DNA from: Limisphaerales bacterium
Lineage (GTDB): Bacteria; Verrucomicrobiota; Verrucomicrobiia; Limisphaerales; AAA164-E04
DNA length: 64,000 nt
Assembly (NCBI GenBank): GCA_965203425.1
Contig: OZ241891.1
Location: 1,775,127 to 1,839,126, forward strand
Reading direction: 5' to 3'
Shown: positions 32,226 through 48,890 of the stretch, piece by piece
Numbering within the stretch: position 1 is the first letter of the stretch
Layout: every line of letters starts with the position of its first letter
The notes under the pieces: model-generated
The model's input: the letters and a program-made list of their open reading frames with translations, nothing else
Databases searched by the model: none
What the model was told of the DNA's origin: nothing
Program-made: the position numbers and the translations under genes

Positions 32226-35200
32226 TCATCTCTTCTCTGCTTCTTTGACGGGCCGCCGCCGGGCAAACAATCCCTTCAAATCCTCAAGCACGAGATAGCC
32301 GGCAGGAACCAAAAACAATGAAATCATCGTGGCGAACATCACGCCGAAGGCCAGTGACGTGGCCATCGGGATCAGAAACTTCGCCTGCACGCTTTTCTCA
32401 AGAATTAAGGGAATCAGGCCGACAAAGGTCGTCAAAGAAGTCAACAAAATGGGGCGGAATCGGGCCGCGCCCGCTTGGCGAACCGCGTCTATCAGTTGGC
32501 CGCCCCGGCTGCGAAACCGATTAATATAGACAACCATCACCAGATTGTCGTTCACAACCACGCCGGAAAGAGCAACGATGCCGAACATAGAAAGGATCGT
32601 GAGGTTCATTCCCATGAAGATGTGTCCCCAAACGGCGCCAACCAGTCCGAAAGGAATGGCCGACATCACGATAAACGGCTGAAAATAGGAGCGAAAGGGA
32701 ATGGCCAGCAAAGCGTAAATGATGAGGAGCGCCAAGGGGTAGCCGCGCAAAATGCCCTGTATGGTTTCCTGTTGCTCCTGCTGTTCGCCTTCCCAAGTGT
32801 AAGAGATTCCGGGATGTTTCTCCATTAGATTCGGAAGATAATTCGCTTCCAGATCAGCAATTATCTCGTTGGCGTTGGCTTTGGAGGCGTCCACGTCTGC
32901 CGTTACATTAATGGCGCGCCGCCGATCCACTCGCTTAATTTCGGAGTATCCGCGACCGGCCTGAACTTCGGCCGCCTCTCCGAAAGGAACTTCCGCTCCA
33001 AAGGGCGTTCGAATTCGCATCTCCTCCAAATCTCCCAAAGATCGACGCTCCGACTTCGGATAACGCACCATAACGCGCACTTCGTCGCGGCCGCGCTGAA
33101 TGCGTTGGGCTTCCTCGCCGTAAAAGGCCTGCCGCACTTGGCGGCCTAAATCCATTTGCGATAATCCCAAGGCTTCAGCACCGGGGCGGATGGCTAATTT
33201 GACTTCCTGCTTCCCATCGCGAAAGGAATCAGCGATGTCAAACACGCCGGTGTAGGAGCGCAGATGCCCCTTCAACTCATCCGCCGCCCGCCGCAAGCGG
33301 ACGAAGTCATTCCCCGTCAACTGCGCGTTGATGGCCTCGCCGGAGGAAAAAAGAGAGGAAGTGAAGATCAACTCGGTCGCTCCCGGAACTTCTCCGGTTA
33401 ATTCCCGCCATCGAGCGGCCAGTTCCCGGCTGCTGTTTCCCTGCCGGTTCTCCGCCTTTTGTAGTTCAATGTGCACTTCGCCCAAGTGGGCGCTGGAAAC
33501 ATCGGCGACGAAATTGCCGCCTCCTTCCTGCTGCGCTCTGTTAAACGGCTGCTGCCCCACCGAAGAGAGAACGTGGCGAAACACGCTCTTCTCGCCTGCT
33601 TTCCGATTCCCGTCGATTTTCTTGCGCAGCGCATCGGCGCCGGCCTCGATTTTCGCCAAAGCCTTTCGAGTGGATTCCGCCGGCGTTCCCAGAGGCATTG
33701 CTAGAATCGCGGCCATGTTGTCCCCTTCCACCGGCGGAAAAAATTGGAACTTGATCCATCCCCCGACGATCAGCCCCATCGTCACCATCATGACTCCGAA
33801 GGCAATAGCAATTGTGAGGTAGCGAGCCCGCAGGGCGGCGGCGAGAATGGGTTGATACACGCCGCGGATAAACGCCCTCAATCGACCGGCAAACCAAGCC
33901 TGAAACCGGAGGAGAACAGCTGAAATCGACCGGCCAGAGACGCGCCGCTCCCCTTTCCAATGGCTCAAATGGCAGGGCAACACCAGCAGGGACTCCACCA
34001 GCGAAAACAACAAGGTGGGAATCACAACCGCCGGAATCACTCTGATGATCTGGCCGGTGTTGCCAGGCACCATCAACAAAGGCAAAAAAGCGGCCACGGT
34101 GGTGAAAACGGCAAAAATCACCGGCTTGCCGACTTCCTGAGCGCCGCGAATGGCCGCCGCCAGTTTGTCGGACTCGGACTCTTGGTGGGCGTGGACGTTC
34201 TCGCTGACGATGATGGCGTCGTCCACCACGATGCCCAAAACCAAAATGAACGCGAAAAGAGAGATCATGTTGATGGAGACGTCCGCCCAAGGCATCACCC
34301 AAAGTGTTCCCAAGAAAGAAGCGGCCAACCCAAAACTCACCCAAACGGCCAGATTGATTCTCAAAAACAGCGCCAGAGAGAGAAACACCAGCAACAAGCC
34401 GAACAAGCCGTTTTTGACCAGCAACTGCTGCCGGCTGCGGAGATAGGAGGCGTCGTCCTGCCAAGCCGATATCGACAAGCCTTCGGGCAGGCGAGCCTTC
34501 TTCTCCTCCACAAATTCATGGACGGTTTTGGAGATTTCCAAAGCGTTCTGATCGCCCACGCGAAACACTTGAATCAAAACCGAAGGCATGCCGTCAAACC
34601 GCCCCTCGGTGTCCGTCTCCGCAAATCCGTCGACCACTGGCGCCACCTCGCGAAGCCATAACTGCGTTCCATCGCGGCGACTCCGAAGCAGAATGCCTTC
34701 AAAGTCCGCGCCCCGATAAGCCTGCCCCTTAGTTCGCAACAAAATCTCGCCGCCTCCCGTCTTCACCGAGCCGCCGGGCAAATCAAAAGAACGCCGCCGC
34801 ACCGCCGCCGCCACTTCGTCAAAGGAAAGACCGTATTTTCGAAGCGCCTGCTCGGACACTTCAATCGAAATCTCGTAGGGACGAACGTTGGCCAACTCTA
34901 CCTGCGTGATGTTGGGCAAGGCCGCAAGTTCGTCCCGGAACTGCTCGCCGAGCCGTTTGAGTGCCGCTTCCGAAACCCGTCCGGCAAGGGCAACGTTGAT
35001 GACTTGCCGACGCATCAAAACTTCCTGAACCACCGGCTTTTCCGACTCTTCCGGGAAGGTGTCGATGGCATCCACCCGCGCCTTAATTTGATCCAAAACT
35101 TCGGAGGCGTTCGCGTTGGGTAACAACTCGGCCATGACCGTTCCGCTTCCCTCGCGGGCGGTGGAGGTGATTTGCTTAATCCCCTCCAAGCTTTGAATGG

Positions 35201-35411
35201 CCTCTTCCACGCGGATGCAAACGCCTTCCTCCACTTCTTCCGGCGCCGCTCCCAGATAATCCACTTGCACGGAGACCATGCCCGACTCCGTCTCCGGAAA
35301 CACTTCGCGCTTGATCGACCGGGCAGACATCAATCCGGCCAAAATGATGAAAATCACAAGCAGGTTGGCGGCCACGCCGTTGCGAGCAAACCACTGGATC
35401 ACTCCGTTCAT
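32226..35411 (-). CDS. RND efflux transporter, inner-membrane permease (AcrB/CzcA superfamily)
   Basis: 1061 aa, starts MNGVIQWFARNGVAANLLVIFIILAG. It has the 12-TM two-large-loop layout and conserved VVDDAIIVSENV and VVNDNLVMV segments. Confidence 0.95.
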   Translation of the reverse strand: MNGVIQWFARNGVAANLLVIFIILAGLMSARSIKREVFPETESGMVSVQVDYLGAAPEEVEEGVCIRVEEAIQSLEGIKQITSTAREGSGTVMAELLPNANASEVLDQIKARVDAIDTFPEESEKPVVQEVLMRRQVINVALAGRVSEAALKRLGEQFRDELAALPNITQVELANVRPYEISIEVSEQALRKYGLSFDEVAAAVRRRSFDLPGGSVKTGGGEILLRTKGQAYRGADFEGILLRSRRDGTQLWLREVAPVVDGFAETDTEGRFDGMPSVLIQVFRVGDQNALEISKTVHEFVEEKKARLPEGLSISAWQDDASYLRSRQQLLVKNGLFGLLLVFLSLALFLRINLAVWVSFGLAASFLGTLWVMPWADVSINMISLFAFILVLGIVVDDAIIVSENVHAHQESESDKLAAAIRGAQEVGKPVIFAVFTTVAAFLPLLMVPGNTGQIIRVIPAVVIPTLLFSLVESLLVLPCHLSHWKGERRVSGRSISAVLLRFQAWFAGRLRAFIRGVYQPILAAALRARYLTIAIAFGVMMVTMGLIVGGWIKFQFFPPVEGDNMAAILAMPLGTPAESTRKALAKIEAGADALRKKIDGNRKAGEKSVFRHVLSSVGQQPFNRAQQEGGGNFVADVSSAHLGEVHIELQKAENRQGNSSRELAARWRELTGEVPGATELIFTSSLFSSGEAINAQLTGNDFVRLRRAADELKGHLRSYTGVFDIADSFRDGKQEVKLAIRPGAEALGLSQMDLGRQVRQAFYGEEAQRIQRGRDEVRVMVRYPKSERRSLGDLEEMRIRTPFGAEVPFGEAAEVQAGRGYSEIKRVDRRRAINVTADVDASKANANEIIADLEANYLPNLMEKHPGISYTWEGEQQEQQETIQGILRGYPLALLIIYALLAIPFRSYFQPFIVMSAIPFGLVGAVWGHIFMGMNLTILSMFGIVALSGVVVNDNLVMVVYINRFRSRGGQLIDAVRQAGAARFRPILLTSLTTFVGLIPLILEKSVQAKFLIPMATSLAFGVMFATMISLFLVPAGYLVLEDLKGLFARRRPVKEAEKR

Positions 35412-36604
35412 TCCCCGCCTCCTGCTTTTTCACCGGCGACGTTCACCTTCATGCCGTCCACGGGAACGTCCACTGAGGAAAGACAAAGCCGATCCCCTGG
35501 CTCAAAGCCCCCTTCAACCACCGCCTGCTCGCGATCGGCCCGCAAAATCTGCAACTCCCGAATTCGCAAGCGGCCTGCCGCATCCACCGCCAAAGTCTGT
35601 CGGTTTTCTAAAACCAGCGACCGCGGTACGACGTATACGCCCTTGGCCGTCCGTCCCTGAATTTCCGCCTCGACGAACATGCCCACTCTCAACGGCGGAT
35701 TTGTTCCGTCCTCCGCATCGTAGGGATTTTTCACTTCGGCGATGACGGCAATCATGCGAGAATCCACGTCCACTTCCCCATCTACCCGAACTACCTGCCC
35801 CCGCCAACGATGTTCCCGCCTGCCAAACCGCCCTTTCAGCGCAACAGAAATCGACCGCCGCTGTAAATCCTCTGAACTTTCTCCCGGAGGAACATCCAAA
35901 AAGCGCAACTCGGTCAAAGGCAAGGGCAGGCGGACTTCGACGCGATCTACGCCGAAAAGCGCCGCCAACTCCTCGCCTCGGCGCACAAACTGCCCGGCGT
36001 CTACCGCCGCGCGCCGCACGCGACCGTCAAAGGGCGCCGTTATTTGAGTTCGCTCCAAGTCCAAATTCGCTTTTTCCCAATCCGCTTGGGCGGCCGCGAG
36101 CGTCGATTTTGCCTCCGCCAACTGCGGCTGCCGAAGCAACAGGGCGCTGGCCTCCTTTTCCGTTCCCATTTCCCGCCAATCTTGCGCCGCTACTTTCGCC
36201 TCCGCTTCCGCCGTAGCCAAGCGCAGTTGCGCCGAAGCCACTTGCGCCGAAGCCCGCGTCACCGCCAGCTCGAAATCCCGCGAATCTATGGCCACCAACA
36301 ATTCTCCCTTGCGGAAAACGCCCCCTCTTTTGAGAGACGGCGAAATCGCCGTGACCATTCCGTCCACTTCCGGAATCAATCGGATGGCGGTTGCGGCCTC
36401 AACCGTCCCTTGGCTTTTGACCGAGATTGGAAAATCCACCCGTTTCAACGCCCGCAACTCTAGCGTTGGCGTTGGCGTTTCCACCGGATTTGGCGTGGCC
36501 GTTCGGCGCCACTTCACCATCGCCCACAAAGCGGCGGCGCTCAATCCAAGAACCAACACCGGCGGAACGACCTTTCGCAACATAGGCATCATCCCATTCA
36601 TCAA
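35408..36604 (-). CDS. RND efflux periplasmic adaptor (membrane fusion protein)
   Basis: N-terminal anchor, a coiled-coil hairpin region (AQLRLATAEAEAKVAAQDW...LAEAKSTLAAAQADWEKANLDLERTQITAPFDG), and 4-nt overlaps with both neighbours. Confidence 0.85.
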   Translation of the reverse strand: MMNGMMPMLRKVVPPVLVLGLSAAALWAMVKWRRTATPNPVETPTPTLELRALKRVDFPISVKSQGTVEAATAIRLIPEVDGMVTAISPSLKRGGVFRKGELLVAIDSRDFELAVTRASAQVASAQLRLATAEAEAKVAAQDWREMGTEKEASALLLRQPQLAEAKSTLAAAQADWEKANLDLERTQITAPFDGRVRRAAVDAGQFVRRGEELAALFGVDRVEVRLPLPLTELRFLDVPPGESSEDLQRRSISVALKGRFGRREHRWRGQVVRVDGEVDVDSRMIAVIAEVKNPYDAEDGTNPPLRVGMFVEAEIQGRTAKGVYVVPRSLVLENRQTLAVDAAGRLRIRELQILRADREQAVVEGGFEPGDRLCLSSVDVPVDGMKVNVAGEKAGGGE

Positions 36605-38259
36605 TCCTTAGGCGACGCTTGCAGAGCATTCCGCCCGTTCGCAACCTTGTCTTCGGCGGCAAAATCTCCGCTCCCTCCCAACGCAAGATAAAGATCGATG
36701 CGGTTCAGAAGCCTTGCCCGGCGCACGTCAATCCCTTCAATAGCGTCCGATAAGAAGCGACGTTGCGATTCCAGAACGCTCATCAACTCTTCCAAACCCG
36801 AAGAGTAGCGCCGATTGGCCAGCGCCAGCGCCGCTTCGGACTCGGCGGCCGCAGACTGAACGCGGCGCTCTCGCTCGGCCAACAGCGACTCGCTTTGCAA
36901 CGCAAACTCCACCTCGCTAAAAGCCCGAAGCACGGCGGAAACATAGAGAGCGGCCGCCTCGCGCGTCCGAGCCTTTGACAAATCCACGCCCGCGCGCAAC
37001 TTTCCCCATTGCAAAATGGGTTGCGCTAGATTGCCGGCCAAAGTCCAAACGCCGCCCAAGCCCGCGTCCGGCAAATCTTCCGGCTCGGCCACTTGCGTGC
37101 CGGCGGACGGAGTCAGGCTAATCTTGGGAAACAACGCGGCCCGCGAAGCCCACAAACGCGCATCCGCCGCCGCCAAGCGCCGTTCCGCCGCCGCCAAATC
37201 CGGCCGCCGTTTGAGCGCTTCGGAAGGAATTCCCGCCGGCACGGCGCCTTTCAAAGGCGGCAAGGGACCCAACAATGAAATTTGTCCCGACGGATACCGA
37301 CCCAAAAGAAGCTCAACTTGTTGCAAGGCTTGATGCAGTTCCCGCCGCCGCTGCGCAACCAACGCTTCCGCATTCTCGGCGCTGTTAATCGAAAGCCGCC
37401 AATCCAACGCGGACCGCAGTCCCCGTTCATACCGTTTCTCAATCTTCTTCGCCGTTTCGCAAAAGCTGGCCGCCGAATCGCGGGCGGCCTGCAGTTGTTC
37501 CCGCGCCGCCACTGCTTCCACCCAAGCCTTGCTGATCGACGCCGCCAAAGACAATCGGCGCATTTTCCAATCGGCCAGCGAGGCTTGCGACTCAGCCAAA
37601 GCGGCTTTTTTTCCGGCTCGAACGCCTCCCCACAAATCAATCTCCCAAGAAGTGCTGAAGTTAAGCCGATAAGTCGTGTACGTTGCGGACGGAGAACCGC
37701 CTGCGGATTCGCTCGGATTGTCCGGAATCGGAAAGCCTATAAAATTCTGTTTCTGTCGAGACCCATCCACCTGCGCGGAGAGACTCGGCCAAAGATCGGC
37801 CCCGGCAATGTGGGCGTTGGCCGCCGCCGCTTCCATTCGAGCCGTCATCGCCCGCAAGTCCGGATTGCCGTCAAAGGCTTCGGCAAGCAGGGACGACAAT
37901 TCTTCAGACAGAAAGGAGTCCCACCAAAGAGGCTCGTCCGTTGCGGAAACGGTTGCCGCCCCAAACCATGCCGAGGGAATCCGCAATTCCTTTGGCAACG
38001 CCTGCCTTTCCGGCACAGACACGCAACCGGACGCCAACCCAAAAACCAGAACAACGGACACCGCCGCTTTCTTTGCAAAATCGGACGCAGTGCCAATTCC
38101 CGATTCTTGTCTGATTTCCGGCGGAAGAACGGACGAATGCTCCGCGCGATTGCGTTGGCAGTGCTTTTTTTGAGAGGCTCGCTGCTGCCCGGCAAAGACA
38201 ATGGGGAAAAGGCGGCCAATGCGGGGGCGGCAATTTATTTTCCAGCGAGCATTAGCCAT
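36601..38259 (-). CDS. outer-membrane efflux factor (TolC/NodT family lipoprotein); start uncertain
   Basis: Lipobox LVFGLASGC and duplicated OEP repeats with long coiled segments. The longest ORF (to 38379) would overlap the upstream RDD gene, and no canonical start lies close to the lipobox. Confidence 0.75.
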   Translation of the reverse strand: MANARWKINCRPRIGRLFPIVFAGQQRASQKKHCQRNRAEHSSVLPPEIRQESGIGTASDFAKKAAVSVVLVFGLASGCVSVPERQALPKELRIPSAWFGAATVSATDEPLWWDSFLSEELSSLLAEAFDGNPDLRAMTARMEAAAANAHIAGADLWPSLSAQVDGSRQKQNFIGFPIPDNPSESAGGSPSATYTTYRLNFSTSWEIDLWGGVRAGKKAALAESQASLADWKMRRLSLAASISKAWVEAVAAREQLQAARDSAASFCETAKKIEKRYERGLRSALDWRLSINSAENAEALVAQRRRELHQALQQVELLLGRYPSGQISLLGPLPPLKGAVPAGIPSEALKRRPDLAAAERRLAAADARLWASRAALFPKISLTPSAGTQVAEPEDLPDAGLGGVWTLAGNLAQPILQWGKLRAGVDLSKARTREAAALYVSAVLRAFSEVEFALQSESLLAERERRVQSAAAESEAALALANRRYSSGLEELMSVLESQRRFLSDAIEGIDVRRARLLNRIDLYLALGGSGDFAAEDKVANGRNALQASPKD

Positions 38260-38347: not shown

Positions 38348-39112
38348 TTAAGATTTCTTCTCTCCGCAAAAGAGAACATCGACTATGTCAAGCACCAAAC
38401 GCTCTTCGGAAAGGCCTCGAACATTTTCTTCCGGTATCGGAACAATCGACTGGAAGCGAGCGGCCAGTTCGGAAAAGAGACGCCAACGCGCTTCGGGCAA
38501 CAAAGCGGAGCGGCGTTGGACGGCTTGCAAAGCGGCGTCCGCCAGTTCCGGATCCACTTCCTGCCGCAGCCGCGCCATCAAGGTTTGACAATCGCGCAGT
38601 GAATTGTACTTTTCAGCTGCGTCAAGATCCGGCGGACGGAAGCGAGGTTGGGGAATGCGCACAACGACGGTTCCGGCCGCAATATCTCCCAGCCGCCTCC
38701 CTTGCCGGTCGGCAAAAGCCGTCAGCCCTCCGACGGCGTAAAAGAAGGGAAGATGATCGACGACACGCAAGAGATTGCGCATCACAATTTGACTGAACAA
38801 AAGCTTGGAGCCGGCCCCGTTCGCCACGCGAATTTGCACGATGCGCTTGCCGATGGTCTGGCCTTTTTGCCTCCACTCAAGCGCGATGCTGTAGCCGATT
38901 TCGATCCCAAAAGCGGCGAGAAACGCGATGGCTTGGGCCGTATCCGCGCTCAATACGCGAAGCAGAGTCAACGGAATCTGAATCAACACCACGCACAGCA
39001 AGATGATCCCGAAGTCAATGGACACAGCCAACAGACGAAGCACAGGGCTGGCAATCGGCTGCGAAAACTCGATGCCTTCCGGCGTCCGAACTCGAAACAT
39101 CCGAATGTTCAT
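38348..39112 (-). CDS. RDD-family membrane protein
   Basis: RLLAVSIDFGIILLCVVLI...GKRIVQIRV...ADRQGRRLGDIAAGTVVV. Confidence 0.75.
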   Translation of the reverse strand: MNIRMFRVRTPEGIEFSQPIASPVLRLLAVSIDFGIILLCVVLIQIPLTLLRVLSADTAQAIAFLAAFGIEIGYSIALEWRQKGQTIGKRIVQIRVANGAGSKLLFSQIVMRNLLRVVDHLPFFYAVGGLTAFADRQGRRLGDIAAGTVVVRIPQPRFRPPDLDAAEKYNSLRDCQTLMARLRQEVDPELADAALQAVQRRSALLPEARWRLFSELAARFQSIVPIPEENVRGLSEERLVLDIVDVLFCGEKKS

Positions 39113-39127
39113 TTCAGCGGTCGATGA

Positions 39128-40189
39128 TTAGGCTTCATTGGATAACGGAGAATAAAAGGGCCGTTCCCTTTGCATTTTGTCTTTCCCAAGCTTGCGGCGT
39201 CCAAAATGAGCGAAGAATCCAACCAAGACGACCGCTTCCACGAGGCCGAAGGCGATCTTCGCCGCATAAGGCAACTGAGGCTCGTGGTCTTGAGACAAAA
39301 ACGATTCGACCAAGCCGGCCCAAATCAGCATCAAGGCGACGCCGCAAAGAATGGTAAGCAGTTTCGGCAGGATCATCCGCATCCGTGCCGAGAGGGAATA
39401 TTGATTGCGCCAACCAGCGACGGCTCTTCCCAAAAGCAAGCCGCCCTGCCCCGCAATGAGAAAGGCCGGAATCTCAACAATCCCGTGAGGCAACAGCCAG
39501 CCAAGCAGGAAGACGGTTTCTCCCGCGGCCGCATAGTCAAAGGCAACCGCCCCCAGAATGACGCCATTGTAAAATAGCACAAGGATCGTCCCAACGCCCC
39601 AAGTGATCCCCAGACAAAGAGCAAAAATGGCCACTTGGGTGTTGTGGGTCATCAGCCTGGCAGAAAAGGCGGAATTCCATTTTTTGCTTTCCCCACCGCT
39701 ATATTCGCGAGATTCCTCGCCGGCCACGCGTTCGGATGGATCGCCGTGCAAATGAGAGAAGCCTTCGGGAATCAAATCTCCTTTGGCGGCGGGATCGATT
39801 ATCAGAACGGCGGCGCCAAAGAAACTTCCAGCCAACATAATTCCAGCCGAAAGAAGCAAAGCGCGCCAATGCCTCATAACCGTCGCTGGCCAAACGCAGA
39901 AGAACCAATCCCGGAAAGAAAAGCGAGACTGAATCTGGTTGCCATCTTGAATCTCCGCATAAGCGGCGGCCACCAGTTGCTCCAGCCAATCGCTTGTTTC
40001 TGGCCGAAGCGAATAAGTGGCCAGCTTTCCCAGCCCGCCGGCGGCGCGTTCATACAGATAATGAAACCTCTGCAGTCGATCAAAGTCCAAGCGGGCGTGC
40101 GGATCGCGCTCCAATTCCCGGACGAAGGATTGAAGTTCTTCCCAAAACGGAGTCTCTTGTCGGATGAATTTGTCCAAATCCAGAATCAT
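39128..40189 (-). CDS. SpoIIM-like (DUF95) membrane protein
   Basis: ...FYNGVILGAVAFDY...GWLLPHGIVEIPAFLIAGQGGLLLG. The start at the internal Met gives a 4-nt overlap with the DUF58 stop. Confidence 0.7.
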   Translation of the reverse strand: MILDLDKFIRQETPFWEELQSFVRELERDPHARLDFDRLQRFHYLYERAAGGLGKLATYSLRPETSDWLEQLVAAAYAEIQDGNQIQSRFSFRDWFFCVWPATVMRHWRALLLSAGIMLAGSFFGAAVLIIDPAAKGDLIPEGFSHLHGDPSERVAGEESREYSGGESKKWNSAFSARLMTHNTQVAIFALCLGITWGVGTILVLFYNGVILGAVAFDYAAAGETVFLLGWLLPHGIVEIPAFLIAGQGGLLLGRAVAGWRNQYSLSARMRMILPKLLTILCGVALMLIWAGLVESFLSQDHEPQLPYAAKIAFGLVEAVVLVGFFAHFGRRKLGKDKMQRERPFYSPLSNEA

Positions 40190-41577
40190 AGAATTTGTCT
40201 CTTTTTGATGGATAGATATTGGTTGACCACTTCGATTCCAAGTCGGTCGGCCTCCGGCATCAGAAAGTCGACGCCGCGGCTTTTTAGACGTCGTTGGAAC
40301 AAAACTAAGGCGTCCCACTTTTCGTGCCCGGCCAGCTCGCCGTAAATTTCATCCACAGAGGAAACCGCCTCATTTCCGAACAAGGGACGAACCAACCGGG
40401 GACGAATGGCGATGACCGCCGCAAGGTGCTGCCGCCGAACCAAGTCGACGTTTTCCAAAAAACTCTCCATCAAAAGCGCTTCGTCCAAAGAAACCAAAAA
40501 TAACAAAAGCGAGCGGCGATTCAAACGCAGCCGAATGCCGGCGAGCAGTTCTCGAAAGTCAGGCGTCGCGTCGCTGGTTTCCAAAGGATAAAGAGTGTCG
40601 CGGCAAGCGTTGAAGTGCGCCCGCCCGGATGCGGCCCGCAAGAAATGCCGTACCCGATCCGAATAAGTGAAAAAGCCGAATCGATCTCCCTGCCGCTCGG
40701 CCAACTGCGCAAGCATCAATCCCACGGCAAGGTTCTTTTCCAGATAGCTAGTCTGCCCCTCACCCGGCGAACGGACAGGACAAGGCCTTCCGCTGAGTCG
40801 AGAGGCGTCCAGCACTACGTAAATGTCTTGAGTCCGCTCCAACTGATAGACCTTTGTGATCGGCTTGCTTCGCTTCGCTGTCGCCTTCCAGTGAATGTCC
40901 TCATAACCGTCTCCGGGAACGTATTCCCGAAGCTTTTCAAAATCTCTTCCCTTCCCCAACTGCCGCAGCGAATGCTCTCCCAATCTTTCCCCGCGGACAA
41001 ACAAGGCGCCCAACTGTTTTCGCTCTGCCAAAACGTCCGGAAAGACCTGCACCTCGCACTTTGCCGCCAAACGAGTTTGAATCCGCCAAAACCCAAAACG
41101 CGACGCCGTCTCCAAACAAACAAACTCGATCTGTCGAAGCCCGCGCTTCACTGCAAGGCAAGGCACGCGGATCGAAATCTTCTTTTCATCACCCTCCGCA
41201 ACCACTAAAAACTCCGGCTCCAAACAGCGAACGACCTCCGGAAACGCAACCGCCGCCCGGCAAATCATCGCGCGAGGCCGTTGCCATTCCAGTTCAAAAA
41301 CAAAGTCGCCCCGCCGATGACGAGAAAGCCGAAACCGTTTCGGCACATTCGCGCGAACGCCATCCCATTGTCCCGAAGAATTCGCCAAGTCCCAAAGAAC
41401 CCAAGCGGCAAAAAATCCGCCAAACAAAAGAAGCGCCGGCCAAAGACCGGGCGCCAATACATACAAAGCCGAGCCGGACAACAGCGCAACGGAAACGCAG
41501 AAAATCAACTTTCGGCTCGGACTGCAACTCATTCCCATCGACAAGGCGAAAAGGCCGCGCCGCGGCAAACGCGTCAA
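40186..41577 (-). CDS. DUF58-domain protein (MoxR partner)
   Basis: LREYVPGDGYEDIHWKATAKRSKPITKVYQLERTQDIYVVLDASRLS. Two N-terminal TM segments. Confidence 0.85.
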   Translation of the reverse strand: MTRLPRRGLFALSMGMSCSPSRKLIFCVSVALLSGSALYVLAPGLWPALLLFGGFFAAWVLWDLANSSGQWDGVRANVPKRFRLSRHRRGDFVFELEWQRPRAMICRAAVAFPEVVRCLEPEFLVVAEGDEKKISIRVPCLAVKRGLRQIEFVCLETASRFGFWRIQTRLAAKCEVQVFPDVLAERKQLGALFVRGERLGEHSLRQLGKGRDFEKLREYVPGDGYEDIHWKATAKRSKPITKVYQLERTQDIYVVLDASRLSGRPCPVRSPGEGQTSYLEKNLAVGLMLAQLAERQGDRFGFFTYSDRVRHFLRAASGRAHFNACRDTLYPLETSDATPDFRELLAGIRLRLNRRSLLLFLVSLDEALLMESFLENVDLVRRQHLAAVIAIRPRLVRPLFGNEAVSSVDEIYGELAGHEKWDALVLFQRRLKSRGVDFLMPEADRLGIEVVNQYLSIKKRQIL

Positions 41578-42539
41578 CGAGGCACGGAAACCTTTCCTAA
41601 CGCTTGCGCAATCACTTCTTCCACGGTCAACCCCTCCATTTCAAACTCCGGCCGCAACACAAGCCGATGCCCCAGAACCGGTGCCGCCAATGCCTGCACA
41701 TCGTCGGGCGAAACATAGTCGTTGCCGTGAATAACGGCCCGGGCGCGCGCCGCCGTCAACAAAGCCTGAGTCGCCCGCGGCCCAACGCCGGAAAGAACGC
41801 TTTCCTCCTTCCGCGTAGCGCGCACCAAGTCGACTACATACACCGCCAACTCCTCTCTTACCGTCAAATGCTTCAATCCTTCCCGAAAAGCCTCGACGTC
41901 GTCCCGCGCCAAAACTGGTTTAACGGCGCCGCTCTCCAGCGCCACTTCCGGCGCATCATTTCCCAAAGAGCGCCGGGCCAAGGAAATCTCCTCTTCACGG
42001 CTCGGACATTCCATTCGTATCTTGAGCATAAAGCGATCCTTCTGCGCTTCGGGCAAGGGATAGGTGCCTTCAAATTCAATCGGATTTTGCGTGGCAAACA
42101 CGGTAAAGTCGGCGGGCAAGCGATGAGTTTCATTGTCGATAGTCACGGTTCGCTCCTGCATCGCTTGAAGCAAAGCTGCCTGCGTCTTCGCCGGCGCCCG
42201 GTTAATTTCATCCGCCAAAATAAAGGAGTGAAAAATTGGCCCCCGAATCAGATGGAACTCCGCAGTCTTAAGATTGAAAACATTCGTGCCGGTCAAGTCC
42301 GAAGGCATCAAGTCGGGCGTAAATTGAATCCGCGAATAATCGCAGCAAAGCGTCTTGGCCAGAGTCCGCACCAAAAGCGTCTTGGCCACGCCCGGCACGC
42401 CCTCGATCAAGGCGTGGTTGCCCGTGAAGATCGCGATCAAGGCATGCTCGACGACTTCCGCCTGGCCGATGATAATCTTCGCCACTTCGCTCCGCGCCCG
42501 CCGCAAAACGGCCTGCAATCTTTCTATGTCCGGGTTCAC
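41574..42539 (-). CDS. MoxR-family AAA+ ATPase
   Basis: HALIEGVPGVAKT (Walker A), ILADEINRAPAKTQAALLQAMQE (Walker B / sensor region), 321 aa. Confidence 0.95.
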   Translation of the reverse strand: MNPDIERLQAVLRRARSEVAKIIIGQAEVVEHALIAIFTGNHALIEGVPGVAKTLLVRTLAKTLCCDYSRIQFTPDLMPSDLTGTNVFNLKTAEFHLIRGPIFHSFILADEINRAPAKTQAALLQAMQERTVTIDNETHRLPADFTVFATQNPIEFEGTYPLPEAQKDRFMLKIRMECPSREEEISLARRSLGNDAPEVALESGAVKPVLARDDVEAFREGLKHLTVREELAVYVVDLVRATRKEESVLSGVGPRATQALLTAARARAVIHGNDYVSPDDVQALAAPVLGHRLVLRPEFEMEGLTVEEVIAQALGKVSVPR

Positions 42540-43738
42540 GCTGTTTCTTTGGTTTTTCCAACTTGCGCCCGCCGCAACAAGCCCGCGGCCTTTCTATAGG
42601 CTTCCACAGGAGAAATGCTCCGGGCTTGCGCTTGGCTTGCGATTTGCTGAATTTCCGCTTCGAATTGAAGAACGCCGCCGCTAGAACGGCGCATGCTCCG
42701 ACGCCAACGCTCCGCGCAAATCGGCAACAAATCCTGCGCCAACACGTGCCGCCGCAACAAGCCAGAAATCCCACCAACTGCAAACGCATCCGCCGCCAAA
42801 CGGCCAGGATCAACAAAAGCCTCCGCTTCCGGAACCCGATTCGACTTCGGCAACAAGCTCGCCGAAGAGCGCCAAACAATCAGCAGTCCAATCAAAATCA
42901 GGCTAATATACAACGGCAAAAGCCGATAACGACGCATCAAGGCCACCATACTCGCTTGAGAACGAACGCCCAAATGCGTTTCGTCAAACCAGACCTCCCG
43001 ACGCCCCATCAAAAGCCAGCGCACAAACTCCGGCGACGGCTCTTCCAACAACGCTTTGTTGCTCAAAACATAAGTGCCACTGAGAACGGTCAAAAATCCC
43101 TCACCCAAAGGCCTCCGCACAACCGTCGGAACACCGTCCGCCTCGAAAACAATCCCCCACTCGCCATCCGCATCCACAACAAATCCCCCACGGCCCAATC
43201 GAGGCAACGACTCAACGCGCAAGCCTTCCTCATCCGAAACACGCGACATTCGTCCCTCCTCAGACGCCTCCTCGCCAAATGCCCGACAATATCGTAACCC
43301 CGGGCCAAACTCCAAATCCTCGCCCGAATTTCCCGCACGATCTGTTTCTCGAAACGACCAAACCAAATGTCCCCCCGAACGCGCAAAATCCAGCCAGCGC
43401 TTCGGCGGATGCCAATCTGAAAAAGTCTCCTTCAACCGAGAAGAGACATCTCTCTTGGATTGGAAGGAGGGAGACGCCCCCAGCCAAAACATCGTTGCCC
43501 GACCGGGATTGGAGAGAGTCTCGGCGGAACGAATGAACCGGCGAACCTCCAAGCCGGACAAAGACCGAAGGGCTTCATACAATGCCCGGCAACCGAGAGC
43601 GTCCGAACGAAAGGTGGAATACTTCGGATAAGAATCCCCCTTTTCAAATCGCAACCAAACCAACCGAAGCAATCCACTCCCCAAAACGAGCGCCAGAATC
43701 AAAGCGAAAATCGCCGGTCTTGCCCCCTTCCTATTCAT
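42536..43738 (-). CDS. DUF4350-like membrane-anchored protein
   Basis: N-terminal TM, then YSTFRSDALGCRALYEALRSL. Its position between DUF4129 and MoxR is as in conserved clusters. The assignment is from memory. Confidence 0.5.
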   Translation of the reverse strand: MNRKGARPAIFALILALVLGSGLLRLVWLRFEKGDSYPKYSTFRSDALGCRALYEALRSLSGLEVRRFIRSAETLSNPGRATMFWLGASPSFQSKRDVSSRLKETFSDWHPPKRWLDFARSGGHLVWSFRETDRAGNSGEDLEFGPGLRYCRAFGEEASEEGRMSRVSDEEGLRVESLPRLGRGGFVVDADGEWGIVFEADGVPTVVRRPLGEGFLTVLSGTYVLSNKALLEEPSPEFVRWLLMGRREVWFDETHLGVRSQASMVALMRRYRLLPLYISLILIGLLIVWRSSASLLPKSNRVPEAEAFVDPGRLAADAFAVGGISGLLRRHVLAQDLLPICAERWRRSMRRSSGGVLQFEAEIQQIASQAQARSISPVEAYRKAAGLLRRAQVGKTKETA

Positions 43739-45384
43739 CCCGCCGCCCTTCGTATTTGGCTTACGTGGTCTTCGTAAGCGCGCAGCCTCGCTTCATCCAC
43801 TTCATATCGCCCATACCAAACGCGGTCAAACCCTTTCACCACAAAAGAAAACGCCTCCTCCACTCCCGGAACCTGATGCTCGCGCCGCTTCACCTCGCTC
43901 AAATAAGCCGCGTTGGACTTTGCCCTCGTGATGCGAATCAGTTGTTTGCCGTGAAGATGAGACAGCGCCGACAAATAAAAAGCCCGCAAAGCGCGGCGAT
44001 AATCGCCCTCCTCCGCAAACCGCCTCGCCCGAGCCAACCACTCATCTTCCGGCAAATCATTGGCCAACGCCGTCCAATCATCCACTTCAGGCTTGACGAA
44101 AACCTGAGGCGCCGAGCCCGGCACCGCCGAAGACTTTTGCCGCCGCAACACCAAACGACACAGCAACCAAACCAACAGCAGACCAACGGCCGCCAGCAAA
44201 ACAATCAGCAAGTGCTTGACCGACGGAGAAAAGGAACCCAACCAACCCCCCGAAGAATCGCCGCCGCGATCCCAAGATCCAAAGATCCATTCCAGAAAGT
44301 TCTCCGCCCAACGATTGACCTTCCAAAGCCAACGCCTAAACAAGGACACGCCCTCCTCACTCGCCGCCGCCGGCATCCGCCAAGTGAACTCAGGCCGTTG
44401 AACGACTTCCCGGATAGCCTCGCCAATCTCCTCCGAAGTCACTGCCTCTTGCGTCCGTCCCAACGGCGTCGCCAAGGAAAATAACATTCCCGCAAACAGC
44501 GCGCCGCCAAAAAGCCGCAACGCCAATCCCCTCCGCCCGGATTGTTCGGCCAACCGCGCCAGCCGATCCCGAATATCCAAACCAGAACGACGAGAGCGAA
44601 GATAATAATGACGCAAAACATAAACCGCCTTCGCCAAGGGACTGACCACGGCGTAAACCGCAAAGCAAACCACAACAAACACCGTGCTGTTCAGCAACAC
44701 AACCCACCACGGCGATTGGGTGACCACGGTCTCCACGCCAGTCGCTATCTTGAGCAACTTGGGAACCATAAACACCAACATGTAGCCATTCAAAAACACA
44801 AAAAACGCCCAAGCGGAAAGAACCAACAACGCAACATGGTTTTGCCGCTGCCAAACAAAAACCTCCGCTGCCGCCTCTTTGAAAGTCTGCCGCAAAGAAG
44901 CCCCTCCAACGCCGCCAATCACCGAAGCGCTTTGCCCAAAACCCAGCACCCAGCCCATCGGAACAACCACCAAAGCCGCAATCGCCCCAACCACCAAAAA
45001 CACCGCAAACACGGCAATTTGACGCAAACCCAAAAAAAGCCAATCCAACGCAGAACCAGCCGGCAAAGGCCGCCGAGAAAGAACGGCAAACAACTCCGCC
45101 GCAAACCTCGCCTGCCAAGCCCTCCACCACAAAACGGCAAGCGCCACCGCAAAGGAAAACGTCGCCAAATGTTCCCCGGCAAAGGGACTGACCGTCATAT
45201 CCGTCAAAAAATAAAGCAAAACCAATCCAAAAGGACACAGCCCAAGCAAATAAACGCACCAAGCCCGAACCGGCGCCGCAACCAACAAATAGAACGCCCG
45301 CTCACACAACTCCACCCCGCCGATTTCTTCGAAAGTTTTCCCCGCCGCCACGCCCGCTTTGCTCTCCAAACTCCGTGCCATCAC
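43735..45384 (-). CDS. polytopic membrane protein with a C-terminal DUF4129-like domain
   Basis: About 8 TM segments, then ...ARRFAEEGDYRRALRAFYLSALSHLHGKQLIRITRAKSNAAYLSEV...VWYGRYEVDEARL. Confidence 0.6.
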   Translation of the reverse strand: MMARSLESKAGVAAGKTFEEIGGVELCERAFYLLVAAPVRAWCVYLLGLCPFGLVLLYFLTDMTVSPFAGEHLATFSFAVALAVLWWRAWQARFAAELFAVLSRRPLPAGSALDWLFLGLRQIAVFAVFLVVGAIAALVVVPMGWVLGFGQSASVIGGVGGASLRQTFKEAAAEVFVWQRQNHVALLVLSAWAFFVFLNGYMLVFMVPKLLKIATGVETVVTQSPWWVVLLNSTVFVVVCFAVYAVVSPLAKAVYVLRHYYLRSRRSGLDIRDRLARLAEQSGRRGLALRLFGGALFAGMLFSLATPLGRTQEAVTSEEIGEAIREVVQRPEFTWRMPAAASEEGVSLFRRWLWKVNRWAENFLEWIFGSWDRGGDSSGGWLGSFSPSVKHLLIVLLAAVGLLLVWLLCRLVLRRQKSSAVPGSAPQVFVKPEVDDWTALANDLPEDEWLARARRFAEEGDYRRALRAFYLSALSHLHGKQLIRITRAKSNAAYLSEVKRREHQVPGVEEAFSFVVKGFDRVWYGRYEVDEARLRAYEDHVSQIRRAAG

Positions 45385-45698
45385 TCAATCATTTCCTCCC
45401 AGCCCGAAGTGTCGTGAAACCAATCCGGAATCAAAATCATCAACTTGCCCGCAAAGGCAACCAGTCCCCAAACCGCCAGAAAACCCAGAACGCCGCAAGC
45501 CGCTTCAGCCAACGATCCAAAGCGCCTCTTCCGCTCCGTTTGCGCCTTGCTCTCCGCCGCCATACAAGCCGCGCAAACCATTTTGCCTCCCACAAAAGTG
45601 ACGCACTCCCGGCAGTAATGGCGACCGCAAGAACGGCACTTGGCCGCCGCCTCCCGCTCCCAATGATGAAAACACCGTTGCTCGCGCAGCTCTTTCAT
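45381..45698 (-). CDS. small B-box-like zinc-finger protein with a C-terminal TM
   Basis: CFHHWEREAAAKCRSCGRHYCRECVTFVGGKMVCAACM, then TM GVLGFLAVWGLVAFAG. The ATG at 45698 overlaps the upstream stop by 4 nt. Confidence 0.5.
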   Translation of the reverse strand: MKELREQRCFHHWEREAAAKCRSCGRHYCRECVTFVGGKMVCAACMAAESKAQTERKRRFGSLAEAACGVLGFLAVWGLVAFAGKLMILIPDWFHDTSGWEEMIE

Positions 45699-46252
45699 TT
45701 TTCGCGTCCACTCGGTTCTCCGCTCTTCGCAACCGCCGGAGATGGAACACTTTCTCGATTTTGTCCGGTTTCCGCTTCGCCGCTTTGCGCCGCCAAAATC
45801 TTCGGCTCCAACAGCGCAATCGTCTTCACCGCCGCCCGCCAGCGATTGCACGAACCCAACTCCGCCTCCTGCACCCGAGTTCGAATCATCGTCCGCGCCG
45901 CCGGCCCTTTGACAAGCTCGTGCAGCAACAAAATCCCTAACAAAATGCTGAAAGCCTGCGCCAAGAAACGGATGACGATGTTTCCGGAAACAATCGCAAA
46001 AACAGCAAGGGCAAGCAGAAAAATGATAGAAGTTAGCCGCCAGCCAAAGTTAAGAGTGCGAACGACGGCAATTGCCTCAATGTCTCGATAGGGAATGCGC
46101 TTGTAGTTTTCCCGAACATATGAATGAGTATCCACCACCAACAGATGATCTTTGCCTAAATAAGTTTTCGATAGACCGCCGAATTTGATGAACGAACCCT
46201 TGCAAAATCCAGCGCCGGGCAGTTTTTCGTAAGTCTTTTCAGCCATTGTCAC
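45695..46252 (-). CDS. hypothetical membrane protein (soluble N-domain + 2 TM)
   Basis: 185 aa. TM segments LTSIIFLLALAVFAIVSG and AFSILLGILLLHEL. Embedded in the overlap chain. Confidence 0.45.
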   Translation of the reverse strand: MTMAEKTYEKLPGAGFCKGSFIKFGGLSKTYLGKDHLLVVDTHSYVRENYKRIPYRDIEAIAVVRTLNFGWRLTSIIFLLALAVFAIVSGNIVIRFLAQAFSILLGILLLHELVKGPAARTMIRTRVQEAELGSCNRWRAAVKTIALLEPKILAAQSGEAETGQNRESVPSPAVAKSGEPSGREK

Positions 46253-46935
46253 AAATAAAAATCTTCAAAAGACACCGCGAAAAATATCCACAACCAAAAC
46301 CCAATCTGCGCCAAGCCAAGCAAGATCGCCGCCGCAAAAACCCCATTCCCGGAGCGAACAAGACTTCCCGCCGAATTCCAGCGAAAAATTGCGTAAATGA
46401 TGGCGGCCGGCACGGTGATTATCGTTATCGGCCAAAATAGAATGGGCAACAAAGCGAGCATCAAGGCGAAGGAATCATGTCGAAACCGCTCGCGAACCAA
46501 GCCGTCCATTGTTTCTTTTTCCTGCGCAGTTTCCAAACAAGCGGGACAAAGCGTTTTTCCCTCAAAAACAATCTCGCACAAACCGCACAAATAACGCCCG
46601 CAATCCTCGCAAAGACTTTCAGCTTGTTTGGACTCGTGGAAAAAGCAGGCCGACTCCTCTTCCAGCAAAATTCGCCGTCCGGCATTGACCGTCTCCTTCC
46701 TTGTCAAAGCTGGATATAAACGCACGGTCAACGCTTTTTCGCAGGTCGGACAAGAATTCATCGCCGCGCTTTGCAACTCGCTAATCAGAATGTCGCCGTC
46801 GCAGGCCGGACAACGCAAGGGCGGCGGCGCTTGCCGTTCATTCGCCGATCCAACTGTCCGCTGCGTTTCCGCAACCGGCCGGTTTTCCAAGTTCGCTTGT
46901 CCGCCGGACGGCGTTGCTGGCGGCGGGATGTTCAT
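46249..46935 (-). CDS. zinc-ribbon + B-box-like zinc-finger membrane protein
   Basis: CPACDG...CPTCEK, then CFFHESKQAESLCEDCGRYLCGLCEIVFEGKTLCPACL, then 3 TM segments. Confidence 0.55.
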   Translation of the reverse strand: MNIPPPATPSGGQANLENRPVAETQRTVGSANERQAPPPLRCPACDGDILISELQSAAMNSCPTCEKALTVRLYPALTRKETVNAGRRILLEEESACFFHESKQAESLCEDCGRYLCGLCEIVFEGKTLCPACLETAQEKETMDGLVRERFRHDSFALMLALLPILFWPITIITVPAAIIYAIFRWNSAGSLVRSGNGVFAAAILLGLAQIGFWLWIFFAVSFEDFYL

Positions 46936-47753
46936 TTGCGGATGACTCGCGTGCCGCAGATGTGGTCGTGCAAAGTGCGCTTCTCCGAATCAAAGGCAGC
47001 AATAATGTAGCCGATGAGCAAAAGAATGCCGCTCAAGACTTCCGCCAAGGTGCGCCCCAAAGCCCGACCACAGCCGATAGGCTCTCCATTGGCCGTGACT
47101 ACCCGAAGATCAAGCGCCAATTTGCCCAAAGTGGCGCCAAACTTCCAAGTCAACAGCCAAGTGTAGCAAAGAGCTACTGACAAGTTGAACAGATCGAAAA
47201 CCAACTCACCCGGCGTTGTCTCCGGGCTCCACAGAGATTCCATGCCAAATAGCGAATACCGCAAAAACTCCATCGGAATCCCAACAATCAATCCGTCCAG
47301 AAACTTGGCGACAAAGCGAATCCAGAATCCGGCGTAGTTCAATTCTGCCGCATAGGCGACGCCTTGGGTGATTTTGGCCATGAAGGTGGGTTTGCAGTTG
47401 GCGCAGACGAAGCTTCCTCGAAACAAAATCACGTCTTCCTTCAAAAAGACGCCGCCGCATTGGGCGCAGGCGACGTGATCTCCCGCCATTTGCTCCGCCG
47501 AAGGCGCTTGAACGGCTTGGCCGTAGGGTTGCCAATCCGCCATTCCGTCGCGCCAGACCAGTGTTTCCGACGCAATGGTTCCTTGTCGAACCAATTCGTC
47601 GAATGCCGTTTGCTCTAACGGGCCGAGCCGTTCCTCGCCTTTCAAATAATACCACTTTGCCACTTTTATCGCTTTCGTTTGTCGGTTGCCTTCTCGGATT
47701 CGGTTGGCAAGGAAGAATCCCCGCTCTGAAAAGAAAAGGCAAGGAAAATTCAA
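46932..47753 (-). CDS. GYF_2 (DUF4339) + zinc-ribbon + RDD-domain membrane protein
   Basis: KWYYLKGEERLGPLEQTAFDELVRQGTIASETLVWRDGMADWQPY; CAQCGG...CANCK; RDD part YAGFWIRFVAKFLDGLIVG...CGTRV. The GTG at 47663 just before KWYY is an alternative start. Confidence 0.7.
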   Translation of the reverse strand: MNFPCLFFSERGFFLANRIREGNRQTKAIKVAKWYYLKGEERLGPLEQTAFDELVRQGTIASETLVWRDGMADWQPYGQAVQAPSAEQMAGDHVACAQCGGVFLKEDVILFRGSFVCANCKPTFMAKITQGVAYAAELNYAGFWIRFVAKFLDGLIVGIPMEFLRYSLFGMESLWSPETTPGELVFDLFNLSVALCYTWLLTWKFGATLGKLALDLRVVTANGEPIGCGRALGRTLAEVLSGILLLIGYIIAAFDSEKRTLHDHICGTRVIRK

Positions 47754-48074: not shown

Positions 48075-48890
48075 ATGAAAATACAAAGTCCCCCCCCCCC
48101 CCCCCGCAATCCTAAGCCTTTGCCCATCGGCGCCTTTGTAGCAACGGTTTTGCTTGCTTTGGCGACGCTGGAACAAAGCCAAGCCCAACTTTACATCCAC
48201 ATCTATCCCAGCCAAGACAGCCCCACCAACCAAACCCTCTGGATTTTCTCCGGCAGCTCCACTGCGGGGAGCAGCAGCAGCATTCGAACCTCTGGCATCT
48301 ACGAATCACAAGACTCTTGGCGCTTTGCCGATCATGGCGGAAACTTTTACAATGCCAACGCGCCCAATAACCAGACAATCTCGCTCTCTCCCCTCTTTTC
48401 CAGTTCCAACTCCAAAGACATTGAATCCATCAGAAAGAGGATTCCCGGCGGCGGCCGAACCAATATCACTTTTGCCGCCAGCGCCACCAACACGCCCACA
48501 ATCACCATTGCCAGCGGCAACCAAACCATTTCCCACCTTTTTATGGACGATAATACTTTATCTCGAGATGGCATAGGGATTCGGGTCTCCGGGAGCGCTT
48601 TTTCCTATTCCAGCGGAGCGTCTTCGGCTTGGACGGGCGCCGGCATCCTCAACAAACCCATCAGCGATTTCTTTGGTGGGAGAACCTACAATAATTGGAA
48701 GATTGGGATTGCGGCGCCTCGCTTCGCGGCGGATTCTCAAGGCTCGGTGAGGATTGTCGTCAACAGCCAAGTCATCCCCGAACCAGAGGAATACGCTCTC
48801 GTCTTCGGCTTGTTTGCGCTAGGTTTTGTGTTCTTTCATCGATGGCGCAGGCAAAAGAAACGCCGCCAACCAGCCGCCACAACTTCGTAG
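48075..48890 (+). CDS. PEP-CTERM-anchored secreted protein
   Basis: C-terminus VIPEPEEYALVFGLFALGFVFFHRWRRQKKRR. N-terminal signal ...AFVATVLLALATLEQSQAQ. Paralog of 10786..11585. Confidence 0.8.
   Translation: MKIQSPPPPPRNPKPLPIGAFVATVLLALATLEQSQAQLYIHIYPSQDSPTNQTLWIFSGSSTAGSSSSIRTSGIYESQDSWRFADHGGNFYNANAPNNQTISLSPLFSSSNSKDIESIRKRIPGGGRTNITFAASATNTPTITIASGNQTISHLFMDDNTLSRDGIGIRVSGSAFSYSSGASSAWTGAGILNKPISDFFGGRTYNNWKIGIAAPRFAADSQGSVRIVVNSQVIPEPEEYALVFGLFALGFVFFHRWRRQKKRRQPAATTS
48090..48105 (+). repeat. C16 homopolymer inside codons 6-11 of the PEP-CTERM gene
   Basis: Counted directly: agt + 16 C + gcaat. It is translated as PPPPPR in the listed frame. Confidence 0.9.

Follow-up and report, generated by a model that had tools for sequence, protein, structure and literature searches.

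A widespread ten-gene MoxR/DUF58 membrane cassette headed by zinc-finger and GYF proteins

We analysed a 64,000-nucleotide (nt) stretch of a Limisphaerales bacterium genome (contig OZ241891.1, positions 1,775,127 to 1,839,126; called the window below), in which ten minus-strand open reading frames (ORFs) encode a MoxR-type ATPase, a DUF58 protein and eight accompanying proteins. The genes are labelled g1 to g10 in their order from 47753 to 38348, and we refer to g1-g4 as the head and to g5-g10 as the core. The ten genes very probably form a conserved unit, and the cassette is a widespread conserved variant of the known MoxR/DUF58 membrane cluster, not a one-off or a categorically new system, because the head arrangement is standard in about 50 Verrucomicrobia-type genomes. 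Among the uncharacterised ATPase systems of bacteria and archaea, MoxR/DUF58 operons rank with the commonest. The core, including its Mycobacterium tuberculosis version, still has no assigned function, and the GYF, zinc-ribbon and B-box domains of the head are classical interaction modules.

Genes, junctions and domains of the cassette

Start and stop codons were read directly from the DNA, and this codon reading reproduces the gene order, the ten ORFs (47753..38348) and the eight 4-nt junctions proposed in an earlier sequence-only reading. The eight junctions follow one another without interruption, and each is an exact NTGA overlap of 4 nt (46932/46935, 46249/46252, 45695/45698, 45381/45384, 43735/43738, 42536/42539, 41574/41577 and 40186/40189), while g9 and g10 are separated by a 15-nt spacer. 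The start codons at the overlaps are ATG in five cases, GTG in two and TTG in one, so that three overlaps depend on non-ATG starts; for both GTG 46252 and GTG 45384, an ATG further downstream is an alternative. For g8, ATG 41538, which lies 13 codons downstream of TTG 41577, corresponds to the start in the closest relative (L001; the alignment begins at residue 14) and may be the true start. The start of g1 is more probably GTG 47663 than TTG 47753, because orthologues of 242-246 amino acids (aa) begin 1-3 codons before a WYY motif; the recorded lengths of g1 orthologues range up to 259 aa. Tight packing recurs in the relatives, where 40-53 of about 58-82 loci allow a 4-nt overlap at the g4>g5, g6>g7, g7>g8, g8>g9 and g9>g10 junctions. 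The packing described earlier is thus confirmed; the stoichiometric complex that had been attached to it is a conjecture from gene packing.

Domains were assigned with Pfam profiles against the curated gathering cut-offs, and NCBIfam was also scanned. The results reproduce every domain call made earlier from the letters; the B-box and DUF4129 are sub-threshold in the window and above the curated cut-offs in orthologues. Hydropathy and AlphaFold2 (AF2) models predict that all of the proteins except the MoxR ATPase g7 are membrane-embedded, and they place the zinc fingers and the GYF domain on the cytoplasmic side.

The head opens with g1 (46932..47753), which combines a GYF_2 domain (about 47520-47654), a CxxC-x17-CxxC zinc ribbon (47394-47468) and an RDD domain (46953-47336). 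GYF_2 (PF14237) scores 51.8 bits (cut-off 25.8) and RDD 85.1 bits (cut-off 24.1), and the ribbon is kept in 48 of 53 orthologues. The second protein, g2 (46249..46935), has an N-terminal zinc ribbon (46741-46812), a B-box-like binuclear finger (46537-46647) and three C-terminal transmembrane helices, which are also seen in the AF2 model. Alignments show that C42, C45, C62 and C65 are invariant, as are all eight ligands of the B-box, and a sequence-profile search of the PDB with the g2 N-terminus matched LysW-type ribbons. In the window, g2 also carries a lineage-specific Pro-rich N-terminal extension (IPPPATP...APPPL, 46810-46935).

The third protein, g3 (45695..46252), is a two-transmembrane protein that is present in this lineage as a short form of 185 aa, and its orthologues occupy the same slot in every cassette. 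Their consensus has two motifs, LWLGxDHLL...YxRFxxxDIQAI at the N-terminal end and GPxCxC behind the transmembrane pair; Pfam and NCBIfam give no match to g3, the one sub-threshold hit being to DUF6232 in a single orthologue. The C-terminus of g3 is frequently rich in proline, with PP within the last 30 residues in 32 of 59 orthologues. Tails of the PPx[RV][IL] type, with recurrent DDPNxPPRL and APPVIS endings (poly-Pro also occurs), are found in 24 of the 59, compared to scores of 0-2 in the other nine families. The last head protein, g4 (45381..45698), consists of a small B-box-like finger (45564-45674) followed by one transmembrane helix; its homologue search returned only three close matches, too few for a deep alignment or a model. 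Fusions of g1 and g2 occur in four clusters at 50% identity, and one protein joins the GYF domain directly to the g2 module. The fused polypeptides P0164, P0195, P0265, P0149 and P0179 are Rosetta-stone-like, and a frameshift or gene-calling artefact is possible.

The fingers of g2 and g4 share the ligand spacing C-x2-H-x8-C-x2-C-x4-C-x2-C-x9-C-x2-C over 37 residues. The residues quoted for this pattern in the sequence-only reading are right, and its spacers of x7 and x7/8 were off by one or two. An alignment of 102 sequences shows no variation at the eight ligands, and the pattern, a cross-brace spacing, is kept in 56/59 g2 ORFs and 61/63 g4 ORFs from other genomes. In the window, zf-B_box (PF00643; cut-off 24.1) scores 22.9 bits on g2 and 18.6 bits on g4. 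The profile matches 14 of 16 g2 relatives at E<=0.01, and the g4 orthologue in L004 passes the cut-offs of both zf-B_box (24.9 bits) and ANCHR-like_BBOX (30.6 bits; cut-off 27). The AF2 model of g2 residues 36-145 has a mean predicted local distance difference test score (pLDDT) of 84.7, with values above 90 over the finger, compared to 60 for the full-length model. PDB profile searches with the B-box segment give marginal matches (E 0.12-0.5), of which the B-boxes of TRIM28 and MID1/2 are in register from the first ligand. Judged by its ligands, the g2/g4 domain appears to be a binuclear cross-brace finger with B-box2-like spacing in the first six ligands, for which 'B-box-like' is a fair label. 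The Cys-rich region of g2 also matches the PADLOC candidate defence protein HEC-08 (23 bits, E=7.7e-6), which probably reflects a common zinc-finger composition.

The core begins with g5 (43735..45384), a polytopic membrane protein with a C-terminal DUF4129 (PF13559; cut-off 24.8) that scores 23.6 bits here and passes in orthologues with 26.8 and 34.2 bits. The next protein, g6 (42536..43738), contains DUF4350 (PF14258; 35.1 bits, cut-off 30.4), a predicted extracytoplasmic GldG-like, flavodoxin-like domain lying between two transmembrane helices and followed by a cytoplasmic tail. The MoxR-type AAA+ ATPase g7 (41574..42539) is the sole soluble protein of the set and belongs to MoxR proper, with AAA_3 at 207.5 bits (cut-off 27), AAA_lid_2 at 78.3 bits, the Walker A/B-type motifs GVPGVAKT and ILADEINR in its translation and a match to the MoxR structure 2R44 in the PDB (E=1.3e-78). 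Encoded directly after it is g8 (40186..41577), a DUF58 protein (PF01882; 52.8 bits, cut-off 23.4) with an N-terminal transmembrane hairpin and a cytoplasmic domain resembling von Willebrand factor A (vWA).

The SpoIIM-like (DUF95) polytopic protein g9 (39128..40189; PF01944 at 119.4 bits, cut-off 26.9) has an N-terminal cytoplasmic helical domain, which is DUF8413 in precomputed annotation; the combination of DUF8413 and SpoIIM is recorded on orthologues. Residues N183, H235, E239, E295 and Q300 of g9 are invariant. Pfam finds neither a SpoIID nor a SpoIIP domain of the DMP engulfment complex in the cassette, and the host belongs to the Verrucomicrobiota. The family membership of g9 holds, but the sporulation role does not transfer. 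The last protein, g10 (38348..39112), carries an RDD domain (PF06271; 64.2 bits, cut-off 24.1) and ends in a cytoplasmic domain of about 100 aa. In all relatives its gene closes the conserved cassette, and the genes downstream vary. Sequence-profile searches of the PDB with the g9 SpoIIM, the g8 DUF58 and the rest of the g2 family returned nothing significant.

Conservation of the head with the core

To survey the cassette from the core side, a SpoIIM alignment was scanned over 185,579 species-level (species-dereplicated) genomes. This identified at least 407 relatives, of which the best 80 were fetched (47-55% identity, plus one at 87%). Cassette hidden Markov models (HMMs) were built from the window and five orthologous cassettes, and a locus was considered informative when it extended at least 8.3 kb upstream of g9. 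The results show the complete set of ten families, in unchanged order, in 45 of the 51 informative loci among these best 80 relatives. On nearly all of the 29 shorter contigs, the expected genes run as far as the contig edge; the two exceptions are L026, with only g9-g10 despite 6.6 kb upstream, and L023, with an extra g1-like ORF after g10. Departures from the full cassette also include L074, which begins with g7 behind a scaffold gap, and L040, which like L026 has only g9-g10. The zinc-finger and GYF genes therefore travel with the MoxR core, and the possibility raised earlier, that they are not conserved beside such clusters in related genomes, is contradicted.

By their record labels, the loci come mostly from several orders of Verrucomicrobiota, and also from Kiritimatiellae, Lentisphaerae, Bryobacterales, Desulfobacterota and others; the nearest SpoIIM relative among the best 80 of at least 407 is a Limisphaerales metagenome-assembled genome. 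Five bins labelled Bifidobacteriaceae, Klebsiella, Saccharimonadales or Pseudomonadales (L021, L023, L034, L018 and L047) contain a cassette of the Verrucomicrobia type with about 50% identity. Mis-binning of these contigs is probable, and the taxon labels of the survey need care.

Searches from the head side gave the same picture. A g2 search returned 25 close cluster matches, or 118 with a profile, and an exhaustive HMMER search of 1.84 billion representatives places 635 clusters at 50% identity in the g2 family at E<=1e-30, and 2221 at E<=1e-3. Six genomic contexts with 27-82% identity to g2 (among them L001, L002, L004/5, L006/7 and L008) have different flanks and an identical ten-gene order: (GYF-)RDD, g2, g3-like, small B-box, DUF4129, DUF4350, MoxR, DUF58, SpoIIM and RDD. 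The features of this cluster that had been singled out as unusual are thus rather the normal form of the cassette in Verrucomicrobiota-type genomes. With its 635 clusters, g2 represents a large and coherent bacterial radiation in which membrane-tethered B-box-like fingers are linked to an AAA+ chaperone and not to ubiquitin-type chemistry.

We also compared the divergence of the ten families across the loci. When the pairwise identities of each family are correlated with those of g9, r is 0.74-0.88 for g1-g4 and 0.88-0.92 for the core genes, values that were reached by 0 of 300 permutations.

On the same strand downstream of the cassette, 32226-38259 encodes a complete resistance-nodulation-division (RND) tripartite system, consisting of an OEP lipoprotein, an HlyD-type adaptor and an AcrB-type pump (ACR_tran), with 4-nt overlaps between the genes. 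The longest OEP ORF (592 aa) over-extends upstream, its lipobox LASGC lying near residue 105. A 32-nt overlap between g10 and OEP exists solely with this longest ORF, and the start used in the relatives (38259) leaves a gap of about 88 nt. The efflux system does follow directly in the window, as had been pointed out; the RND genes are not part of the unit, because they adjoin the cassette only in close relatives. On the other side of the cassette, a divergent gene on the plus strand (48075-48890) encodes a 271-aa protein without a Pfam match. Its N-terminal segment is signal-like, and its C-terminal PEP-x-hydrophobic-RRQKKRR sequence resembles a PEP-CTERM sorting signal, which would fit Verrucomicrobiota.

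A putative membrane machine and the alternatives to it

What is observed at these loci is the gene content, order, packing, conservation, co-divergence, fusions and topology of the cassette. From these observations we infer, as a plausible but tentative interpretation, that the ten genes constitute one operon and encode one membrane-embedded MoxR/DUF58 machine with an adaptor head. The ATPase g7 and the membrane-anchored, vWA-like DUF58 protein g8 would be the ATP-driven assembly or switching module of an inner-membrane machine, and DUF4129 g5, the periplasm-facing DUF4350 g6, SpoIIM g9 and RDD g10 would be its membrane and periplasmic body. MoxR would spend ATP, through DUF58, to assemble the complex or to switch its state. 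Any output of the complex in secretion or remodelling is putative and follows a 2015 prediction for this widespread core. The head would be a cytoplasmic adaptor or scaffold layer, added in Verrucomicrobiota-type bacteria, that is, bacteria of the Planctomycetes-Verrucomicrobia-Chlamydiae (PVC) type, and it would recruit or gate the MoxR/DUF58 engine.

Within the head, the two B-box fingers of g2 and g4 might oligomerise by analogy with eukaryotic B-boxes. The GYF domain of g1 would take a proline-rich peptide as its ligand; possible candidates are the g3 C-terminal tail, in many lineages, and the Pro-rich N-terminus that g2 has in the window. In its most specific form, the proposal is a PVC-type envelope machine for secretion or remodelling, in which a B-box lattice of g2-g4 hetero-oligomers and a latch between the g1 GYF and the g3 tail would gate MoxR/DUF58; we consider this version speculative and unlikely. 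If the lattice or the latch were true, the head would be a prokaryotic, ubiquitin-independent counterpart of TRIM-like assemblies and would provide the first functional handle on the core. The proposal offers testable pairs, namely GYF with Pro-rich tails, B-box with B-box and the head with DUF58-MoxR, which could open up the whole family.

Several results weigh against this interpretation. Promoter and terminator scans of the cassette remain at the chance level of shuffled sequence and give no support to a single transcript. The head is not obligatory: core-only clusters exist with a DUF805 head or with none, and partial cassettes start at g3 (L022 and L079) or at g5 (L080). Co-divergence would also be expected of any vertically inherited neighbours. 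In a close relative with a 3.8 Mb genome (L003, 9264-12813), g1 is kept, g2 is frameshifted into ORFs of 129 and 89 aa, and g3-g9 are deleted together with the N-terminal half of g10, the remnant lying directly before the same OEP/RND genes. This loss as a block speaks for one unit, but as a natural deletion of the MoxR core it also shows that the system is dispensable. The g3 protein of the window is a short form without the PP tail, and the Pro-rich stretch is found at the g2 N-terminus instead. For the finger, Foldseek searches of the PDB with both g2 models give nothing at E<0.1 (best 0.18); therefore the B-box is not separable from a LIM or RING domain. In the Foldseek list for residues 36-145, LIM domains come first, the PML B1-box is at rank 6 and RINGs are also present.

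The head could instead be a thiol/redox or zinc sensor that activates the MoxR machine in response to envelope or oxidative stress. The cassette has at least six Cys-rich zinc sites (one in each ribbon of g1 and g2, and two in each B-box of g2 and g4) and the CxC of g3, and their cysteines are dense and invariant. In mycobacteria, the core responds as a block in stress-related transcriptomes. Bat-type MoxR/DUF58 operons are tied to aerotolerance, and zinc-containing anti-sigma (ZAS) factors provide an analogy for such a sensor. However, Pfam and NCBIfam detect no sigma factor, kinase or transcription factor in the cassette, and the ligand spacing is that of structural cross-brace fingers and not that of the HxxxCxxC ZAS motif, although structural and regulatory zinc look the same in these data. 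We consider a sensor somewhat unlikely.

A role in membrane-protein quality control, with the B-box proteins presenting clients to a membrane peptidase and MoxR acting as unfoldase, follows from a proposal reportedly made by Burroughs, Iyer and Aravind in 2011, in which prokaryotic B-boxes partner with membrane-associated peptidases. In other settings, DUF4129 forms the C-terminus of transglutaminase-like (papain-fold) proteins, and the invariant His, Glu and Asn residues of g9 lie inside transmembrane segments. However, none of the ten proteins has a peptidase or transglutaminase domain at E<=0.1, and SpoIIM has neither a known catalytic activity nor a relative in the PDB, which makes this role unlikely too.

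Putative ion or solute transport is suggested by the two RDD proteins that bracket the operon; together, perhaps with SpoIIM, they would form a channel resembling a cation/proton antiporter, controlled by MoxR/DUF58 and the cytoplasmic adaptors. One Halobacillus RDD protein is said to be a Na+(Li+,K+)/H+ antiporter, and a Na_H_Exchanger gene lies directly upstream in the TARA locus. However, the neighbours differ in every other lineage, and a transporter leaves the large periplasmic DUF4350 domain and the DUF4129 protein unexplained. We regard transport as quite improbable.

A role in anti-phage defence or conflict, as a MoxR-vWA 'ternary' system in which the zinc-finger proteins would be sensors, is very improbable. 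It draws on a secondary bpMoxR match of g7 (48 bits) and on the weak HEC-08 match of g2 (23 bits). However, the AAA_3 score of g7 (207 bits) is far above that of bpMoxR, and the cassette is near-universal, order-stable and co-diverging in about 50 genomes, where it lies among housekeeping genes with flanks that vary, unlike patchy defence islands. In ternary systems, the vWA protein bears effector domains and is joined by a third component, which is VMAP, iSTAND or TERNS3 (PMC8195603); Pfam and PADLOC find no VMAP, iSTAND, TERNS3, effector or other conflict domain in the cassette, which places it outside the ternary class. With only the HEC-08 hit and a 17-bit MoxR match from PADLOC, the defence reading was rejected.

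It is extremely improbable that the cluster serves, as an accessory or a regulator, the RND pump, which lies directly downstream on the same strand in the window and in the closest relative, and synteny led us to reject this linkage: five more distant lineages have unrelated downstream genes, L003 lost the MoxR core yet kept the pump, and g10 and the outer-membrane factor gene lie at least 88 nt apart.

Comparison with known systems

The two kinds of interaction module in the head have precedents. Compared to the B-boxes of eukaryotic TRIM/MID1 proteins and the membrane-linked B-boxes of prokaryotes, the g2/g4 finger is a binuclear cross-brace with the same B-box2 spacing of the first six ligands, and it is tethered to membrane helices, as described for prokaryotic versions in PMC4506424. 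It differs from known B-boxes in its last ligand pair, a C-x2-C after a 9-residue spacer that is not His-based, and in the absence of a RING and a coiled coil; the peptidase partner of the prokaryotic B-boxes is not found in the cassette. In PMC4506424, Burroughs 2011 is cited for the proposal that prokaryotic B-boxes take part in membrane-protein folding, stability and proteolysis. A full-text literature search found no link between B-box and MoxR in this sense, its one match being an unrelated paper; the content of Burroughs et al. 2011 lay outside that search.

For the GYF domain, Attia et al. (2024) describe a bacterial GYF that binds a proline-rich sequence, and pairs of zinc ribbon (ZnR) and GYF that act as switches; in PVC bacteria, the GYF is typically followed by a zinc ribbon and then by a membrane module (PMC11135422). 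The GYF-zinc ribbon-membrane architecture is thus already in the literature (PMC11135422), as are membrane-linked prokaryotic B-boxes (Burroughs 2011, as cited in PMC4506424). Like GltJ of Myxococcus xanthus, g1 is a membrane protein whose cytoplasmic side carries a GYF_2 domain beside a 4-Cys zinc ribbon. Unlike in GltJ, the membrane part of g1 is an RDD domain and not a Glt component, the GYF domain precedes the ZnR, and gliding genes are absent from the cassette. The NCBIfam GltJ model NF033761 aligns with g1 residues 23-79, which is the GYF region only, at 26.2 bits against a cut-off of 450, indicating that g1 is not a GltJ orthologue.

The ATPase end of the cassette resembles other MoxR systems. 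With Bat and TgpA-type operons it shares a MoxR-proper ATPase followed directly by DUF58. DUF4129 is common to TgpA-type proteins in Pfam. The ten proteins contain no BatA/BatB vWA domain beyond DUF58, no tetratricopeptide-repeat BatC and no transglutaminase core by Pfam, which places the cassette outside the Bat systems. Makarova, Galperin and Koonin (2015; PMC5898192) identified DUF4350 as GldG-like, predicted that DUF4350, MoxR and vWA form a secretion or membrane-remodelling complex, and noted SpoIIM homologues adjoining vWA and COG0714 ATPase genes. The archaeal arCOG01314 module shares with the cassette a membrane-anchored GldG-like DUF4350, a MoxR/COG0714 ATPase and a vWA-type partner; it has immunoglobulin-like and S-layer-type parts instead of DUF4129, SpoIIM and RDD, it lacks the zinc-finger/GYF head, and its function is a predicted one.

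The closest known systems are core-only clusters, and they bear out the earlier statement that the core RDD-SpoIIM-DUF58-MoxR-DUF4350-DUF4129 recurs in bacteria without a characterised function. Rhizobium and Paracoccus plasmids encode DUF805, DUF4129, DUF4350, MoxR, DUF58, SpoIIM and RDD in this order, Nocardia has the core with the RDD gene inverted, and the orthologues of mycobacterial Rv3689-Rv3695 have the same core annotation and are co-regulated in M. chelonae (PMC8191103). In M. tuberculosis, the SpoIIM-like Rv3694c and the RDD protein Rv3695 co-purify (PMC8093794). Rv3689-Rv3695 and the Rhizobium and Paracoccus clusters share with g5-g10 the same six families, order and tight packing, and they are uncharacterised alike. 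They differ in that g1-g4 are absent and the SpoIIM identity is only about 26%; the HMMs of g1-g4 and of the B-box find no match within 9-10 kb of the Rhizobium, Paracoccus and Nocardia clusters. One or two DUF805 membrane proteins lie upstream of DUF4129 in the alphaproteobacterial loci (L009:3529-4628 and L010:4239-4679). Because such clusters exist without matches to g1-g4, we regard the head as a lineage-specific addition to an ancient core, and the comparison suggests that different lineages attach different head modules to one core.

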